Shown: positions 1 to 5,894, counted from the stretch's first letter. The stretch is 64,000 nucleotides of DNA from an uncultured candidate division Zixibacteria bacterium (GCA_963735035.1 CAVTJJ010000003.1:1-64000), one strand, 5' to 3'. Program-made: numbers and translations. The notes: generated by a model not told the origin, from the letters alone.

Positions 1-186
1 CGCATCGTGAAGGTTCTCAAGCCCTCCGACACGGTCAAGATAGGAGAGCTCGGATCTGAAGCGGACGACCGCGACAATTCTGTCACAGACTCGTACGCCT
101 CGGGTCTTGAAGAGCCGAAGCGCTTCGCTCGCCGGAAGGTTACCAAGGACTTTCCGGAATCCGGTAGAGGTGAGCACTCAGACTAA
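1..186 (+). CDS. 3' end of a hypothetical protein, truncated by the window edge; part of the integrative element
   Basis: Frame 1 is open from base 1 (RIVKVLKPSD...GRGEHSD) to TAA at 184-186; no recognisable motif. Confidence 0.45.
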   Translation, partial: RIVKVLKPSDTVKIGELGSEADDRDNSVTDSYASGLEEPKRFARRKVTKDFPESGRGEHSD

Positions 187-612
187 CAGATTCTCAAGCA
201 CAAGTTACGTCATCTAAATTTCCGCCCGCGCGTCATTTTTCGCACAGTAACCCCTGTCCCATCAATCACTTACTGTCATCGGTTGCGTCATTCGTCATTC
301 GTTTCCCTTGGGTAGATAGCGCCCGTCCCGAATGAAGAGCGCAGACGATCACGACCTATAGGTATCCCAATCCTCTGGGCCTCATTCGGGGCAGGCCCGG
401 AGGTTTCTTTTTGGTGGCAGACGCGGTGACCAAAGGCAGATCAGAAAGTCAGGCAGGCGACGGATCGGGATATGTGCCGCATGCCGATCCAACCATTGGA
501 ACTGCCCCCGGGCGTATCAGTCCAGCTCTTAACTCCTTCCTGCACATTCTGGCAGGACTTATCGCAGATGAAATCATAAGGCAATATCAAACCAGTGAAT
601 TGGAGGCAAATA

Positions 613-885
613 ATGACCGTCAAGACAGAATCTCCCCCCTACCAGACTGAAAAACTGATCTTCGCCGCTTATCTGATCGCTTCGAAACGCGCTGATTTGA
701 TCGGGACTCAGCCGAACGGTCGCTCGAAGAACGTCTGTTTCCTCCTATCATCCGCTCCCACGGATGAGGAAATCACAGCTTTCTTCAACGGGACCGCCCC
801 GGTTTCTGCACTCAGATATGCCGAGGCCATCGGAACACTCAAAGCTGTTGCCTACGAAGGGAGGACTAAACATGGTTCCGTTTGA
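613..885 (+). CDS. Small mobile-element protein, DUF5659-like
   Basis: GGAGG RBS at 602-606, ATG 613; pattern 'YQTEKLIFAAYLIA...FLLS...FFNGTAPVSALRYAEAIGTLK' recalls DUF5659 proteins (recognised by eye). Confidence 0.6.
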   Translation: MTVKTESPPYQTEKLIFAAYLIASKRADLIGTQPNGRSKNVCFLLSSAPTDEEITAFFNGTAPVSALRYAEAIGTLKAVAYEGRTKHGSV

Positions 886-1459
886 GCATATCATGGCCAG
901 GATAACCATCAAAGACATCTTACTTGATGCGGGTATCCCGGCGACGAAGAACAGAATACCCTGTCCAGTCCACGGGGGCGAGAACCCAACGTCATTTGCG
1001 TTCACTGATTCGTCTTTCTTCTGTCATTGTTGCGGGGCAAAGGGTGGCTTGGTGGCGCTAACCACCTATCTCCATGAATGTAGCAAGCGCGAGGCCATGG
1101 AGCGGCTCTACCGGCTGGCCGGATTCCCTCCGCCAAGTTCCGAGACGGCACCCAGTGGGTCGAAGCTGGTACCCATTTGGATTGCTACATCGCCAAAACA
1201 CTCTGAGGAATATTACGAAGCTGAAGACAAGCTGGCATGGCTTGAACTACGGCATGAGGCTTTGTCGTGTTGTCTGCGCATGGCACGACGCGCCGTTCGT
1301 GAAAGCAGAATGCCTCTAGACCAGTTCTACCTGATGGAGCAAGTCTACCTCTATGAACTTGAAGAGCTTGATCCGGTCATAATTGAAGCGAAATACAGAC
1401 TCAATCAATTGAAGAAGAAGGAATACAAACATGACAACCATACCCCAAGCGATAGTTGA
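872..1459 (+). CDS. Stand-alone CHC2 (DnaG-type) zinc-finger protein with helical C-terminus
   Basis: GGAGG RBS then ATG 872; motif CPVH-x-E-x2-SF...FFCHCCGAKGG; no Toprim domain in the remaining residues. Confidence 0.8.
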   Translation: MVPFEHIMARITIKDILLDAGIPATKNRIPCPVHGGENPTSFAFTDSSFFCHCCGAKGGLVALTTYLHECSKREAMERLYRLAGFPPPSSETAPSGSKLVPIWIATSPKHSEEYYEAEDKLAWLELRHEALSCCLRMARRAVRESRMPLDQFYLMEQVYLYELEELDPVIIEAKYRLNQLKKKEYKHDNHTPSDS

Positions 1460-2852
1460 CGAAACCTTTTGTGAAAACAGTATACCTCGCGAGTATGAAC
1501 AGCTAAGGGACACTATCGTTTCACGGTTCGACGAGCGGGTGTGGTTTATGACAGAGGCTGCCCTCTCCGTCTGTGTATCCTGCTTGCTTAATGACATAGC
1601 CAACCCCGTCGCCCTGATATTAGTTGACGGCCCCTCAACGGAGAAAACCACCGTCCTGGATTTTCTCGATGGTCTGCCCTACTGCCATCGAGTGGACAAG
1701 TTCACGCCTGCAAGTTTTCTCACCCAGTCAGGCAACGTCAAGAAGAAGGACCTCAAGAACGTCGACCTTCTGGCCAAAATCCCCTATAAGACAGTCCTCA
1801 TCCCAGAAATGGGACCCCTTTTCAATCAGCCGAAAGAAATCCTGTTGGAGAATTACGCAACTCTGGCCCGCGTCCTGGACGGCACTGGTCTGTCCAGCGC
1901 GGGAGCCGTGCATGGCCAGCGATCACTAACCGGGGACTATATCTTCGGCCTACTGGGTGCCACAACCCCTCTCGGTCAAACGGCATGGAACACGATGGGG
2001 AAGATCGGCTCCCGATTGTTGTTCTTGAACGCTCCAGCCCGCCTATCACGCACAGATCGTCAACAGCGGGCAAGGCTCATACTTACGGAACCGATGCATT
2101 ACAAACGTAAGAAGCGCCTTGCCAAAGAAGCAGTAGGGAAATTCCTGTCGTCGTTCTTTGATCGATTCAAACCCAACGATTATCAACCACCCGAGGAAGC
2201 ACCAGCTGGTCTCGACTCGCGTGATGCACTGCTTGTGCATTGTGGCTATCTTCCAAGGTCAGTTAAGTGGAACCAAGAAGACCATTGCGGAGAGACAACT
2301 GAAACCATCGCTCTTCTGGCTGAGTTTGTCACTACTGCCAGGCAGGACATAAGGGTCTGGACTGAACGGGGCGAGGATGGTCACTCGGAGACCAATTCTA
2401 CCGGGACCGTCAATGAGGGTGTTGATCGATTCACGGCAGTTATTTATAATCTGGCTCGGTCGCACGCCTTGCTTGAGGGTCGCACCAAAGTCACAACAGA
2501 AGACCTGCCGCTGGTCATAGCAGTAGCTCTCTCCTGCTTACCCGATGACCGACGGAAGGGAATAGAACTCGTGATCGATCCGAGCATCCCGTGCAAAAAG
2601 TCACCGCGGGGTTCCTTTACGCAAACCGAACTTGAGGAGCTGATGAAAGTCAGCGACAAGACTGCAAAAATGATCATGAGGAAACTGGATCTACTGGGAT
2701 TAGGCAAAGTTGAAAATGGGGTGGGAACAATCGAAGCTCGGTTCATGCTGAACCTCGATTACGAATGGCTACTAACCGACGAGTTCTACCAGCACTACCG
2801 CCCCTGGGATAAGAAGAAGGACGCAGAAAGCACAATCCAAATCCCTTTTTAG
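1431..2852 (+). CDS. MCM-like AAA+ ATPase/helicase with C-terminal winged helix
   Basis: Divergent Walker A (DGPSTEKTT), Walker B-like TVLIPE, sensor-1 LLGATT, Arg finger IGSRLL, MCM-lid-like LARSHALLEGRTKVTTEDL, wHTH-like FTQTELEELMKVSDKTAKMIMRKL. Confidence 0.65.
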   Translation: MTTIPQAIVDETFCENSIPREYEQLRDTIVSRFDERVWFMTEAALSVCVSCLLNDIANPVALILVDGPSTEKTTVLDFLDGLPYCHRVDKFTPASFLTQSGNVKKKDLKNVDLLAKIPYKTVLIPEMGPLFNQPKEILLENYATLARVLDGTGLSSAGAVHGQRSLTGDYIFGLLGATTPLGQTAWNTMGKIGSRLLFLNAPARLSRTDRQQRARLILTEPMHYKRKKRLAKEAVGKFLSSFFDRFKPNDYQPPEEAPAGLDSRDALLVHCGYLPRSVKWNQEDHCGETTETIALLAEFVTTARQDIRVWTERGEDGHSETNSTGTVNEGVDRFTAVIYNLARSHALLEGRTKVTTEDLPLVIAVALSCLPDDRRKGIELVIDPSIPCKKSPRGSFTQTELEELMKVSDKTAKMIMRKLDLLGLGKVENGVGTIEARFMLNLDYEWLLTDEFYQHYRPWDKKKDAESTIQIPF

Positions 2853-2982
2853 CTCGGAATATTTACCAGGTGTGTATATGAATATATATATGTACCAATT
2901 AGTTATGAGTGTTTCAAGGGCTGTTCAATGAGGGACAGAGTTCAAGAATGTGGTTGCGATTGTCATTGGGGAGTGTACTTTC

Positions 2983-4656
2983 ATGAGTGATATGAACGCC
3001 GCCATCTACGCTCGATACAGCAGTGACGCACAAAACCCGAGATCGCTGGACGATCAGGTGAACGAGTGCCGGGCCGTTGCAACCAAGAGAGGATGGCTGG
3101 TAGCCGATGATCATGTCTTTCTCGACGCGGCTCTGTCCGGATCAGACACGCATCGCCCAGCTTATCTGCAGCTGAAACAGGCAGCACTTCATGGACTATT
3201 CGACCACATAGTTGTAGATGACCTCTCAAGACTAGGCCGAGACATGGCTGAATCTGCCACGATTTTCAGCGAGCTGTCGGAGTTTGGGGTAACACTCATT
3301 TCTGTTGCAGATGGAATCGATACTTCCAATCCATCAGCGAAAATCCCCTTCTACTTCAAAGGGATAATGAACGAAATGTTCTTGGACGACATGCGGGCCA
3401 AGATCGTTCGAGGACTCAAGGGTCAGGTCCTGCGCGGCTACTCTGCTGGTGGACGGGTCTACGGATACAAGACTAACCAGATTCTTGATCCGTCCGGTGC
3501 CACCGACAAGTTCGGAAGACCCAAACGGCTGGGCTGTGAAGTCTTGATCGACCAGGAACAAGCTAAGATCGTGCGGCGAATCTTTGAAATGAAGGCGTCA
3601 GGCCACGGCTACCGCAGCATCGCTGACGTTTTGAATCAGATGGGCGTCCCATCCCCTCATGCAGGCTGTGGGGGCCGTGCGGGCTTCTGGTCACGCTCGA
3701 CCGTTCGAGCGTTGGTCCTGCAACGCAAATATCTGGGCGATTGGACATGGAACAAGACCCGCTGGCTTAAGAAGTCGCGGGGAGCCAAGAGGATCAAGAA
3801 GGACAGACCCGATTCGGAGTGGGTGAAGCACAACTGCGAGGCACTTCGTATCATCTCCGATGACCTCTGGGATTCAGTTCACTCGACAGGTGTCAGAACC
3901 TACCGCACGTCGCCAGGACCAAGGGGTCGCTATCTTCTATCCGGTGTTTTGAAGTGTGATCGGTGCGGCGCGTCTCTTGTTGTTCAGAACAGCGGCAGGT
4001 CGTCAGTTTATGTTTGCGGCAGCTTCCGTAACAGCGGCACGGCAGTCTGTTCAAACAACCATCGACTGTCCCGATTCGTGTTGGAGGAAAGGTTCTGTAA
4101 TGAACTCAGTCAGGTATTGATAGATCCGAGCGTACTTGGGGAACTTACCAGAGAAACCAAACTGGTCCTTGAGGAAAAAGTGGCGAGCGACAAAGGCCAA
4201 TCTCAAGGCTTGGTACAGCAAAAACAACAGATTGAACGCGGACTTGCCAACCTCGTCAGCTTGGTCGAAGGCGGGGATATATCTCAGACTATCAGCCGCC
4301 GCATATCTGAACTTGAGAAGGAATTGGAAGCTATTGCCACCAAGCTTGCCAAAGCGTTCCGCTCATCGAGCAGGCAACCAGTTGTCACAACCGACCTGGT
4401 GGCTTCTATACTTGGAGACTTGCAGGGGTTGCTTGGCAAATCGACTGGCGACTTGGGGAGCCTCAAGCAGGCAATAAAAAACCTCTTCCCTGGGCATCTT
4501 TCGGTGGCCCAGGAAGAGGCTGGTGCTGGCGTCAGTTTCAGGGTCAGTGGGAGCCTTCACCCATTCAAGTGGCTCACAACTCCCACTTCCCTAATGTCAA
4601 ATAGCGGTGCAGGGACTCGAACCCCGGACACGCGGATTATGATTCCGCTGCTCTAA
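2983..4656 (+). CDS. Large serine recombinase (resolvase + recombinase + Zn-ribbon + coiled coil)
   Basis: YARYSS catalytic Ser, DDLSRLGR, YGY motif, LLSGVLKCDRCG...YVC...C zinc ribbon; GGGGAG RBS before ATG 2983. Confidence 0.95.
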   Translation: MSDMNAAIYARYSSDAQNPRSLDDQVNECRAVATKRGWLVADDHVFLDAALSGSDTHRPAYLQLKQAALHGLFDHIVVDDLSRLGRDMAESATIFSELSEFGVTLISVADGIDTSNPSAKIPFYFKGIMNEMFLDDMRAKIVRGLKGQVLRGYSAGGRVYGYKTNQILDPSGATDKFGRPKRLGCEVLIDQEQAKIVRRIFEMKASGHGYRSIADVLNQMGVPSPHAGCGGRAGFWSRSTVRALVLQRKYLGDWTWNKTRWLKKSRGAKRIKKDRPDSEWVKHNCEALRIISDDLWDSVHSTGVRTYRTSPGPRGRYLLSGVLKCDRCGASLVVQNSGRSSVYVCGSFRNSGTAVCSNNHRLSRFVLEERFCNELSQVLIDPSVLGELTRETKLVLEEKVASDKGQSQGLVQQKQQIERGLANLVSLVEGGDISQTISRRISELEKELEAIATKLAKAFRSSSRQPVVTTDLVASILGDLQGLLGKSTGDLGSLKQAIKNLFPGHLSVAQEEAGAGVSFRVSGSLHPFKWLTTPTSLMSNSGAGTRTPDTRIMIPLL

Positions 4657-4675
4657 CCAACTGAGCTACACCGCC
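4602..4675 (-). tRNA. tRNA-Met (CAT), probably elongator; CCA not encoded
   Basis: GGCGGTG TAGCTCAGTTGGTTAGAGC A GCGGA ATCATAA TCCGC GTGTC CGGGG TTCGAGT CCCTG CACCGCT A folds into a cloverleaf. Confidence 0.95.
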
Positions 4676-4875
4676 ATCTCATCACCGAAATTTGGGACGT
4701 CAAAATCGACTAATTCCCTCCCGAAGTCAAGCGGGATTCAATCGCAGGCGACCATCCCCGCCGTCCACTACTTATCTCGTGCTTAATACCCCCCTGACAA
4801 CGCGGACATTCGACTCGACTGAGCTCAACATGTCAGTCAACCATCGCCTTCAGACCACCCCGACTAGAATCAGAC

Positions 4876-5012
4876 ACAAAAAGAAAGGCGGCCTGCCCTG
4901 GCCGCCTTTCAGAGTTGGTAAAGGAGTTCTCCCTCACAAAGAACCCCTTCGCCCCGTCTCTTAAATACCCTTCACCGCCATACTGCGTATATTTAAGAGT
5001 AACTAACTGCAT
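4876..5012 (-). ncRNA. Candidate sigma54-dependent small RNA, about 135 nt, three hairpins
   Basis: Two 11-bp stems (4958-4968/4989-4999 and 4921-4931/4939-4949) followed by a GC-rich terminator and U-tract; upstream -24/-12 motif. Confidence 0.55.
4878..4910 (-). terminator. Intrinsic terminator of the candidate sRNA
   Basis: GAAAGGCGGCCAGGGCAGGCCGCCTTTC followed by TTTTT on the minus strand. Confidence 0.8.
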
Positions 5013-5023
5013 CCAGAGTATAC

Positions 5024-5038
5024 TCAAGCTCCGTGCCA
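5024..5038 (-). promoter_or_regulatory. Putative sigma54 -24/-12 promoter
   Basis: TGGCACGGAGCTTGA = TGGCACG-N4-TTG(A); the -12 C is replaced by A. Confidence 0.55.
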
Positions 5039-5282
5039 AACCGATCGTTTGTGTCGGTTATACGTCATAACTCCTTGCTGTAAAATATCATGCAACTATC
5101 ATGACACTCCCATGACACACAAATTTGATTCGTCGAATCGCAGGTCCTGCGCGAAATCCGGCGTCACGATGAAGCCCTACTCTCCCACCGCCTATACGGC
5201 AACGACTTAGGTGACGCATCGACTGCGCCAGCACGACGCCGATTCTGCCCTCTTTCTGTGCCTTGTGGATAGAGAATCGTCC

Positions 5283-5317
5283 AAAATGAAGAACCGGCGC
5301 CAGATCGACGCCGGTTC
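5283..5317 (-). terminator. Intrinsic terminator of the OMP/lipoprotein operon
   Basis: GAACCGGCG/CGCCGGTTC stem followed by TTCATTTT on the minus strand. Confidence 0.6.
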
Positions 5318-5345
5318 AGTATCATTATACCACGAAATTCATCGA

Positions 5346-5894
5346 CTATTTGCTGGCCGACACGGTGATAATGATCTTACCGTTGGTCACCAAGAATTCA
5401 GAGTCACCCGTGTCACCGCAACTCTGGCCGTAATAATCAAATCGGCCGGTCTTTACGATGGCCTTGAAGGCGGCCAGATTGCTGATATGACCGAGGGATT
5501 CGGAATAGGTGACAGTAGTCGTTCCACCTGCTGCAACAGACAGACCATTGATTACCCGGACAGTATCGGCGGGCATAGAGCTTGGCACGGCCGACTCGTC
5601 CGCCGCTCCTGTTGCCGCCGCGAACCAGACGTTGAATTCGCAGTCTGACGCGGAGGTGTTCTCAATCTTGAACTCAAATCCTAGCGCGTCGATATTGTCG
5701 ATCTCATCCTTATGATCTTCCCAGGTGGAATTAGTGGTCAGATCTATTGGACGCCAGTAGAACGGATCGCCGGCGCGAAAACTAAAGTTGATGTCCTCTA
5801 CCACCACAAACGTCCCGGACACCAGACAACCGGCAACGACCAGACCCGTCAGGATCAGACCGATCAATCCAAGTTTCTTATATAGTGTATTCAT
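5346..5894 (-). CDS. Hypothetical lipoprotein
   Basis: Basic N-terminus, hydrophobic stretch, lipobox-like VVAGC; GGAG RBS. Confidence 0.75.
   Translation of the reverse strand: MNTLYKKLGLIGLILTGLVVAGCLVSGTFVVVEDINFSFRAGDPFYWRPIDLTTNSTWEDHKDEIDNIDALGFEFKIENTSASDCEFNVWFAAATGAADESAVPSSMPADTVRVINGLSVAAGGTTTVTYSESLGHISNLAAFKAIVKTGRFDYYGQSCGDTGDSEFLVTNGKIIITVSASK

Follow-up and report, generated by a model that had tools for sequence, protein, structure and literature searches.

A serine recombinase and AAA+ module at a tRNA-Met gene in Zixibacteria, likely the right end of an integrated element

Serine integrases act on att sites of ~40–50 bp that show imperfect dyad symmetry about a central crossover, and they are valued in genome engineering because short att sites suffice and host factors are unneeded. 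Primase-helicases of the phage P4 alpha and T7 gp4 type consist of a zinc ribbon, a Toprim domain, a P-loop NTPase, and a C-terminal DNA-binding winged helix. The Cch protein of SCC was reportedly treated as an MCM-like helicase by Mir-Sanchis in 2016. In the available part of one account, SCC/SCCmec elements couple Ccr large serine recombinases (LSRs) with the MCM-like helicase Cch (PMC10061031). Tycheposons of Prochlorococcus, as outlined in the portion of the source available to us, integrate site-specifically at tRNA genes, carry a primase/helicase module and cargo, and accumulate beside full and partial tRNA copies; they overwhelmingly encode tyrosine recombinases, with LSRs in a minority (937 minus 910 elements) (10.1101/2020.12.28.424599).

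The locus described here lies in a 64,000-nucleotide stretch of DNA (the window) from an uncultured Zixibacteria bacterium (genome G000, C3:1-64000). Four co-oriented ORFs, encoding a DUF5659-like protein, a CHC2 zinc-ribbon protein, an AAA+ protein, and an LSR, end at a tRNA-Met gene, as an earlier note on this DNA had described (Table 1). The placement of the host in the FCB group by that note also holds, a same-genus homologue being named Candidatus Zixiibacteriota. We consider it likely that the locus is the right end of an LSR-integrated tRNA-Met element, whose module probably replicates the excised circle.

Gene module and comparison with SCC

Table 1. Coordinates of the module, the tRNA gene, and the attachment site in the window
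Feature	Position	Strand	Remarks
Gene-module span	613-4656	+	Four co-oriented ORFs: DUF5659-like, CHC2 zinc-ribbon, AAA+, LSR
ORF 3' end, 61 aa	1..186	+	Truncated by contig C3 start; inside the putative element; no family match
DUF5659-like small protein, 90 aa	613-885	+	ATG, GGAGG upstream; listed from GTG 595; heads the conserved module
CHC2 zinc-ribbon protein, 195 aa	872-1459	+	ATG, GGAGG upstream; listed from 764
AAA+ P-loop NTPase with lid and C-terminal winged helix, 473 aa	1431-2852	+	
Large serine recombinase (LSR), 568 aa as listed	2950-4656	+	
Outer arm motif TAATGTC, element-side half-site	4592..4598	.	Reverse complement on contig C2, to the right of the core copy there
19-nt core of attR	4599..4617	.	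Common to attR and proposed attL, G000 C2:142995-143013
tRNA-Met (CAT), integration target	4601-4676	-	ARAGORN; Rfam tRNA 65.8 bits; 3' end toward element

The first base of the window is also that of contig C3, which leaves the left end of the element missing, and the truncated first ORF has no counterpart in the same-genus genome G002 or in 79 related loci. The protein heading the module lacks a direct Pfam match even at E 0.1. Its family aligns by hhalign (probability 89.9%, E 1.7e-6) with the small proteins encoded upstream in related loci, two members of that comparison set match DUF5659 (PF18903) at ~1e-9, and in relatives its homologues lie upstream of the AAA+ gene.

The CHC2 protein contains a primase-type zinc finger followed by ~110 aa with no assigned domain. 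Its Pfam matches are sub-threshold (Zn_Ribbon_Prim, E 0.002; Zn_ribbon_DnaG, E 0.005), while PHROG primase families match it at up to 4.2e-8. Residues C31, H34, and C51 do not vary across six homologues, and the fourth Cys is present in five of them. Profile scans matched only the zinc ribbon and no Toprim or Prim-Pol (AEP) domain in this protein, nor was a primase found among the scanned ORFs of contig C2 from the same assembly. The observations of the earlier note that the zinc finger occurs without Toprim and that the visible part encodes no catalytic primase thus stand, as far as profile scans of the element ORFs reach.

The LSR has the full architecture of a serine integrase, with catalytic Resolvase (E 5.8e-28), Recombinase (4e-23), and zinc beta-ribbon (Zn_ribbon_recom, 2.8e-9) domains in Pfam and a long C-terminal region, and it matches the PHROG integrase family at 3.6e-89. 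CcrB is its best NCBIfam match (E 2.3e-35), as would be expected if the locus were a member of the SCC family with a Ccr-type LSR and a Cch-type MCM-like helicase. SCC elements, too, encode a replicative helicase alongside their LSR, and the available part of PMC10061031 places related LSR islands in rlmH or ssrA. The locus further resembles SCC/SCCmec in its small upstream proteins, its insertion into the 3' end of a conserved gene, and its tandem composites. However, the LSR scores far under the NCBIfam cut-offs for CcrB (122 of 900 bits), CcrC (93 of 900), and CcrA (36 of 700), and the target is tRNA-Met rather than the 3' end of rlmH (orfX). Moreover, the 25 Pfam families listed across 30 AAA+ family members (E ≤1; families outside the 25 matched at most one member) include neither DUF927, the Cch family, nor MCM, and the AAA+ family is linked to Toprim and Prim-Pol fusions. 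SCC membership is highly improbable on these grounds, and in that sense the SCC-like label of the earlier note is not supported.

Recurrence beside tRNA genes

The arrangement is not a chance one: the module has the same order beside a tRNA gene in 5 of 40 relatives, and dozens of genomes from unrelated sources share it. An LSR gene lies ≤4.5 kb downstream of the AAA+ gene, on the same strand, in 54 of the 79 genome loci; 35 of these 54 LSR genes abut a tRNA gene, which is on the opposite strand in every case (35/35) and overlaps the LSR ORF in 33, by 9–80 nt. Ten tRNA types serve as targets across the abutting loci. Homologues encoded beside LSRs, whose absence the earlier note had named as a refutation, were thereby found, along with the tRNA-associated island family that it had proposed. 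The patchy spread among relatives, together with the differing tRNA targets, indicates that the family is mobile. A replication-type gene set with this style of insertion recurs in many uncultured bacteria; a limited literature search returned no published description of the AAA+/LSR/tRNA combination.

These loci share with tycheposons the targeting of tRNA genes, a replication module, cargo, and pile-up at tRNA copies, as far as the available description of tycheposons goes. In contrast, the LSR is the rule here, whereas a tyrosine recombinase is the rule there. The AAA+ family is distinct from the DnaB and VirE helicase types given in the main-text description, and the hosts include Zixibacteria, Patescibacteria, and Nitrospira, among others, instead of Prochlorococcus. 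Integrated elements with this gene set appear to be common among Patescibacteria and other uncultured phyla, about whose mobile DNA little is known. The family would also provide a large natural set of tRNA-targeting LSRs with att sites readable beside the gene, for which landing sites would pre-exist in almost any genome.

Attachment sites and residence at the tRNA gene

The LSR ORF runs 56 nt into the 3' part of the tRNA gene, its last ~15 codons being the tRNA antisense strand. Contig C2 contains three exact partial copies of the tRNA end (30, 25, and 19 nt) in the same orientation. When the right flank of the 19-nt copy is joined to the LSR-side arm, the reconstituted attP has a dyad symmetry of 15/24, equalled in 1 of 1000 shuffles, with its centre between 4609 and 4610, inside the 19-nt core. 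The junctions of the 30- and 25-nt copies, serving as controls, give 11/24 each, a value reached by 1000/1000 shuffles. Among the three copies, only the 19-nt one yields a dyad-symmetric attP, which would set the size of the element at 26.6 kb or more. Judged by sequence, the reconstituted site resembles a serine-integrase attP in size and symmetry, is centred in the core, and is predicted to recombine. The second att site anticipated by the earlier note is thus represented by a tRNA-end copy on another contig.

The left part of the element would correspond to C2 from ~143,005 to the contig end, which would make the element the third island in a row at this tRNA-Met. The two contigs, C2 and C3, do not overlap at their ends, and C2 contains pieces of an O-antigen-ligase-like gene over its last 2 kb. 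Among the cargo are a Type ISP restriction-modification system and a SocA/Panacea gene. An independent complete element (L054) of 13.6 kb is bounded by a 25-nt repeat and has a symmetry of 15/24, reached in 3 of 1000 shuffles. Short upstream repeats at three other loci (L096, L107, and L110) gave no significant symmetry in the shuffle test, and no tRNA-end repeats ≥10 nt were found in the 13–14 kb loci of G038, G032, and G030.

The C2 part of the proposed element also encodes a tyrosine integrase, conserved in G000 and G002 at 82% amino acid identity. Enzymes of this kind classically leave repeats of 19–30 nt at a tRNA 3' end, so the tyrosine integrase could have placed the DNA at the tRNA, in which case the LSR would be a resolvase or invertase that happens to sit at the end. 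Several observations make this alternative very unlikely: the full integrase architecture of the LSR; its position against a tRNA gene in the loci described above, mostly with no tyrosine integrase seen nearby; the size and symmetry of the reconstituted site, centred in the core; and the right arm of the two older islands at this tRNA, which differs from that of the element while being similar between the two.

In G002, the gene order is that of G000: the end of a surface-protein gene, a 100-aa ORF, the tyrosine integrase, an 86-aa ORF, the module, the LSR, and tRNA-Met. At this same site the two elements have ~69.5% nucleotide identity, compared with 68–78% for flanking host genes. Since the element has diverged about as much as its neighbours, the data fit long vertical residence better than recent movement. 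No attL-type sequence was found in G002 with a 17-mer (≤1 mismatch), except the tRNA itself, nor in the 14 kb upstream, nor with a 24-mer at ≤3 mismatches. The same tRNA-Met and right flank are also present in G001, where the tRNA is followed by two ORFs that by eye resemble an HD-GYP protein and a PAS sensor kinase. As these are unlike the DNA to the left of the first C2 repeat, the pre-insertion site could not be reconstructed.

Shared site and tRNA, with divergence near that of host genes, could mean that the locus is a fixed remnant, having lost excision and replication, with its genes kept for a host function such as defence or MoxR-like ATPase regulation. The atypical Walker A motif of the AAA+ protein (described below), the restriction-modification and SocA/Panacea cargo, and the splitting of the G030 LSR into two ORFs would also fit such a remnant. 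However, both G000 and G002 retain all four module ORFs in intact form, at 63–77% amino acid identity, and the patchy distribution and differing targets noted above argue for a mobile family; we therefore regard a fixed remnant as quite improbable.

AAA+ protein and possible replication of the element

The Walker A motif of the AAA+ protein is GPSTEKT, with Glu at a consensus Gly position, and direct Pfam comparison gives only a weak AAA_lid_2 match (E 0.0019). Across 30 family members, AAA_lid_2 is matched in 16 and wHTH families in 5–6. By hhalign, the family is closest to ComM (62%), MoxR (51%), and MCM (43%), followed by DnaA (16%), RuvB (1%), and DnaB (1%); calibration among known groups gave 44% for MCM-MoxR and 8% for MCM-RuvB. 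In the comparison with MCM, made against 10 haloarchaeal sequences (E 2.5e-4), Walker A, Walker B, sensor 1, the arginine finger, sensor 2, and the winged helix are in register. The alignment begins at MCM residue 241, and with ~60 residues before Walker A the N-terminal OB-fold/zinc domain of MCM is absent. The MCM model (PF00493) matched neither the protein nor appeared among the Pfam families listed for the 30 members. These comparisons place the protein, predicted from profiles, in the MCM/Mg-chelatase/MoxR branch of AAA+ but outside MCM proper, so the MCM-like label of the earlier note is retained for the branch and dropped for MCM itself. Of the three outcomes that the earlier note had named as refuting its reading, none was observed outright. 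The protein is probably an initiator or a helicase.

The family comprises 5688 cluster representatives, yet the copies of Pfam and NCBIfam searched contain no model for it. A PDB sequence search with the family profile gave only weak winged-helix matches (best E 0.11), and hmmsearch against all G000 ORFs found nothing below E 0.09 besides the protein itself. Among 33 long forms, 26 are fused to Toprim and 6 to Prim-Pol, a primase fusion in 32/33 together. In these relatives the AAA+ domain forms the C-terminal half of a protein of primase-helicase type, fused to Toprim or Prim-Pol, which makes tRNA-targeting replicative islands (tycheposons, phage satellites) a better comparison than SCC. The domain order of P4 alpha and T7 gp4 is found in fused relatives such as P0044 and L054. 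The NTPase here differs from those proteins in having an AAA+ lid and in its affinity for ComM, MoxR, and MCM instead of DnaB, and the catalytic primase domain is missing in the window.

Some relatives occur in phage-like settings. A viral contig (L236) pairs a Toprim-less CHC2 gene with the AAA+ gene inside a phage-type replication cluster of Gam, Sak4, SSB, endonuclease VII, and Holliday-junction resolvase genes; a gene for a gp3-type packaging protein adjoins the AAA+ gene in L096; and the ESM Atlas clusters neighbouring the family are labelled mostly Uroviricota. PICI-like forms are also mentioned among tycheposons in the available part of that study (10.1101/2020.12.28.424599). The locus could accordingly be a phage satellite or cryptic prophage, with the module replicating after helper induction and transfer occurring via hijacked capsids. 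We consider this unlikely, because Pfam matched no gene for a capsid, terminase, or packaging protein in the examined parts of the G000 element, family matches number 85 in genomes against 2 IMG/VR loci, and an ArdC-type gene, of a kind more usual in conjugative DNA, is present in G002. Tblastn gave no match in cultured phages (INPHARED) or plasmids (PLSDB).

Under the preferred reading of an LSR-integrated element, window positions 1-4617 would be its right end and the LSR its integrase, with attP within the last codons of the LSR gene. Its recombination with the tRNA-Met 3' end would rebuild the tRNA from element DNA and leave the 19-nt tRNA-end copy at the far junction. Because attP would lie inside these codons, integration and excision would swap the C-terminal tail of the LSR, which has 12 aa in the integrated form and a predicted 23 aa when excised. 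After LSR-mediated excision, the circle would probably be replicated by the DUF5659-like, CHC2 zinc-ribbon, and AAA+/winged-helix proteins. The primase catalytic domain would have been lost in this lineage, and priming would therefore need the host.

The C-terminus of the AAA+ protein, IPF, resembles the tail of the host SSB, which ends in DDDLPF. In lineages that lost the fused primase, the C-terminus of the AAA+ initiator-helicase may be an acidic [I/L/V]PF tail imitating the tip of the host SSB; such a tail would recruit host SSB partners, e.g., primase or the clamp loader. We tentatively suggest, as a possibility with the odds somewhat against it, that the element belongs to an undescribed multi-phylum class of replicative islands, defined by a tail-swapping, tRNA-targeting LSR and, in primase-less lineages, an SSB-mimic AAA+ protein. 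If so, capture of the host replisome could be tested on the primase-less AAA+ branch with its SSB-like tail.

In ESM Atlas, unlike the Pfam copy searched here, which gave no such match, P-loop clusters that neighbour the homologue P0012 and are Toprim- or Prim-Pol-fused carry the label PF27228 (MTBMA_p00010_2nd in Pfam 38.1, named per ESM Atlas). These clusters align with P0012 at TM 0.54–0.57 by query, a comparison of predicted structures only.

Gene layout and domain content of the module

The earlier note reported four co-oriented genes ending at a tRNA, and this arrangement is real. In the source assembly (3.6 Mb, six contigs), whose contig C3 begins with the 64-kb window, the 3' part of the large serine recombinase (LSR) ORF extends 56 nt into tRNA-Met. 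A homologue in the same-genus genome G002 is labelled Candidatus Zixiibacteriota.

Features of the module on contig C3 and partial tRNA-Met 3'-end copies on contig C2 of the same assembly
Feature	Contig	Position	Strand	Remarks
Tandem GTCATTC repeat, short	C3	near 287-300
Inverted repeat, 15 nt	C3	321-335 / 382-396
ORF, 79 aa	C3	411-650	+
ORF, 90 aa (DUF5659-like)	C3	613-885	+	ATG with GGAGG upstream
ORF, 195 aa (CHC2 zinc-ribbon)	C3	872-1459	+	ATG with GGAGG upstream
ORF, 473 aa (AAA+)	C3	1431-2852	+	co-oriented with other three
ORF, 568 aa (LSR)	C3	2950-4656	+	co-oriented with other three
tRNA-Met(CAT)	C3	4601-4676	minus	3' end toward the four genes
Copy 1	C2	114729		30 nt
Copy 2	C2	122394		25 nt
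Copy 3	C2	142995		19 nt

The 568-aa protein is a full LSR by Pfam (Resolvase, 5.8e-28; Recombinase, 4e-23; zinc ribbon, 2.8e-9) and matches a PHROG integrase at 3.6e-89. The 195-aa protein carries a primase-type CHC2 zinc ribbon (Pfam E 0.002-0.005; PHROG primase families up to 4.2e-8) with ligands C31, H34, and C51 invariant among 6 homologues; Pfam and NCBIfam scans recognized this as its sole domain, without a Toprim. No Pfam model directly matches the 90-aa protein; its family aligns with same-position small proteins of distant loci (hhalign probability 89.9%, E 1.7e-6), two of which match DUF5659 at ~1e-9. The 79-aa ORF overlapping the start of this gene has a comparable reading in G002 (L021:10511-10762); it may be genuine, or the likeness may follow from conservation of the DNA alone.

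No family was assigned to the 473-aa protein by Pfam, PHROG, or NCBIfam; its relatives give weak AAA_lid_2 matches (16/30) and matches to winged-helix families (5-6/30). Alignment of 30 relatives places the Walker A lysine at K72, within GPSTEKT as against GxxxxGK[ST] in distant members, and also contains E126, invariant and preceded by a hydrophobic strand; the sequence 'GATTP'; R195, invariant within 'GSR'; and a lid arginine, R333. Compared by hhalign with reference profiles built from genome sequences (10 MCM, 21 ComM, 21 MoxR, 14 RuvB, 13 DnaA, and 13 DnaB), the family scored 62% against ComM (E 7.4e-5), 51% against MoxR (E 1.6e-4), 43% against MCM (E 2.5e-4), 16% against DnaA, and 1% against each of RuvB and DnaB; the references calibrated among themselves at 44% (MCM-MoxR), 8% (MCM-RuvB), and 1.6% (MCM-DnaA). 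The MCM alignment covers 368 columns, with Walker A, Walker B, sensor 2, and the C-terminal winged helix all in register, sensor 1 T179 facing the MCM Asn, and the arginine finger GSR facing SRF. Based on this ranking and motif register, we place the protein, by sequence profile, in the AAA+ branch that includes MCM, Mg-chelatase/ComM, and MoxR. Identity as a true MCM was rejected, as there is no PF00493 match and just ~60 residues precede the P-loop. The reading as a replicative island combining an LSR with an AAA+ protein of the MCM branch is largely right. Structural neighbors of the ESM Atlas model of a 60%-identical homologue (P0012) all fall within the same broad family, with clusters that carry a Toprim or Prim-Pol fusion and clusters assigned to PF27228, a recent Pfam family.

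The AAA+ protein terminates (window 2841-2852) in IPF preceded by acidic or polar residues, and a [ILVMTP][PL]F tail is found in 27/54 homologues, mostly primase-less forms. Among genome loci, a PF ending occurs in 8/41 stand-alone versus 1/32 primase-fused forms; as the sequences are related, these counts do not amount to a statistical test. The host SSB (contig C4:1231974-1232400) ends in DDDLPF; proteins bound by the tip of SSB include primase, the chi subunit, and PriA. We hypothesize that the IPF tail recruits a host primase.

Distribution and genomic context of the AAA+ family

The AAA+ family is very large, with 5688 cluster representatives when E <= 1e-3 is allowed and 833 under the stricter limit of <= 1e-30. 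The gene is found in 5/40 relatives of the host, with the gene order repeated in all five; three of these loci end at tRNA-Glu, and that of G002 at the same tRNA-Met. Scanning one genome per species yielded 79 loci, from Zixibacteria, Ignavibacteriales, Nitrospira, many Patescibacteria/Saccharibacteria, Verrucomicrobiota, Melainabacteria, others, and one haloarchaeon. Of 102 downstream candidates, 66 ORFs were scanned with Pfam, namely the nearest + strand ORF of appreciable size in each of 64 loci; second ORFs were left out, as were three lying far downstream (L102, L105, L111). The scan returned 52 LSRs, 3 tyrosine integrases (L041, L097, L101), and 11 other or family-less proteins. With L037 and L040 added, an LSR lies on the same strand at most 4.5 kb downstream in 54/79 loci; five of the other 25 have < 2 kb of downstream DNA. 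A tRNA adjoins the LSR end in 35 of these 54, always on the opposite strand, and is overlapped by the LSR ORF by 9-80 nt in 33; another 18 have no tRNA at the LSR end and 1 stops at a contig end. The tRNA targets are Glu (8), Asn (7), His (6), Met (3), Lys (3), Leu (2), Gln (2), Gly (2), Thr (1), and Arg (1).

Long AAA+ ORFs (>= 580 aa) occur in 33 loci, fused to Toprim (26), Prim-Pol (6), or nothing recognizable (1); stand-alone forms have CHC2 or DUF5659 as separate upstream genes. Just 2 loci of the family were found in IMG/VR. In one (L236), a Toprim-less CHC2 and AAA+ pair occurs amid Gam, Sak4, SSB, endonuclease VII, and a Holliday-junction resolvase, gene company that supports a putative role for the pair in DNA replication.

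A further group (L045, L048, L057-L059, L063; some labelled Saccharibacteria) contains an LSR without an adjoining tRNA that overlaps a ~360-aa downstream ORF, with a ~480-aa MerR-HTH protein encoded upstream, which suggests a different target or a non-integrated form. In the G030 relative (L024:5514-7170), the LSR reading frame is split, with ORFs of 391 and 105 aa, and this copy has probably decayed.

The element works like tycheposons, also tRNA-targeting replicative islands, which carry tyrosine recombinases in 910/937 and LSRs in the rest (10.1101/2020.12.28.424599). It likewise resembles in its workings SCC and other helicase-bearing LSR islands in rlmH or ssrA (PMC10061031). The earlier label "SCC-like" holds as analogy only: the SCC features tested are absent, and CcrB, the top NCBIfam match of the LSR, scores 122 bits where the cut-off is 900. 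What emerges is a widespread family of elements, and no description of the AAA+/LSR/tRNA combination was found in the limited literature searched.

The proposed left end, integration state, and age of the element

Within window 1-5400 the tRNA-Met end is not repeated, because contig C3 begins inside the element. On contig C2, parts of this end recur three times (copies 1-3), without mismatch and in unchanged orientation. An RNase II-type gene lies to the left of copy 1; the interval between copies 1 and 2 encodes an RHS-repeat protein (1618 aa), and that between copies 2 and 3 carries a 2749-aa ORF together with genes for type II secretion/type IV pili. From copy 3 rightward to the contig end are two large surface proteins, a tyrosine integrase, a SocA/Panacea gene, a Type ISP restriction-modification system, and O-antigen-ligase-like fragments.

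To the left of copies 2 and 3 are the right ends of two older islands (C2:114729-143013). These flanks are alike over ~70 nt but unlike the LSR-side arm, so the two islands belong to another element type; no integrase was seen in them. Joined to the LSR-side arm, the right flank of copy 3 gives 15/24 symmetric positions centered within the core, equalled by 1/1000 shuffles, while copies 1 and 2 give 11/24, attained by 1000/1000. The order of a 100-aa ORF, the tyrosine integrase (82% aa identity), an 86-aa ORF, variable genes, and the module is common to G002. Based on this symmetry and shared order, we place the left end at C2:142995-143013, by which the element would be at least 26.6 kb and the youngest of three islands at tRNA-Met. 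Counting against this reconstruction, the C2 and C3 contig ends do not overlap; a search of G002 for attL, the left element end, found none, which argues against either the reconstruction or recent mobility.

As the att core lies within the last LSR codons, the excised form is predicted to encode a 579-aa protein, unchanged to residue 556 and with a 23-aa tail replacing 12 aa. Nucleotide identity between the host and G002 is 69.5% for the element and 68-78% for flanking host genes; this similar divergence fits long residence and argues against recent mobility.

A complete relative at tRNA-Glu in a Saccharibacteria MAG (L054) spans 13.6 kb with a 25-nt repeat and has nSTAND3/Mrr and TerB-type cargo; its site symmetry is 15/24, equalled by 3/1000 shuffles, and that of the shorter repeats in L096, L107, and L110 is not significant. 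Two further genes, one for an ArdC-type anti-restriction protein and one for a small RuvB-like AAA protein, are inserted 5' of the tyrosine integrase in the G002 copy (L021:5548-7161) and are absent from the host's element. In six of six genomes an assembly break occurs within the element or at most ~13 kb away (this assembly, C3:1; G002, C1 end; G038 C30, G030 C7, and G029 C7, starts; G032, C7 end); population heterogeneity or repeats in the elements would yield such breaks. The tandem and inverted repeats 5' of the module lie in window 270-400, which is not conserved with respect to G002, where similarity begins at 494; this region is a possible origin or terminator.
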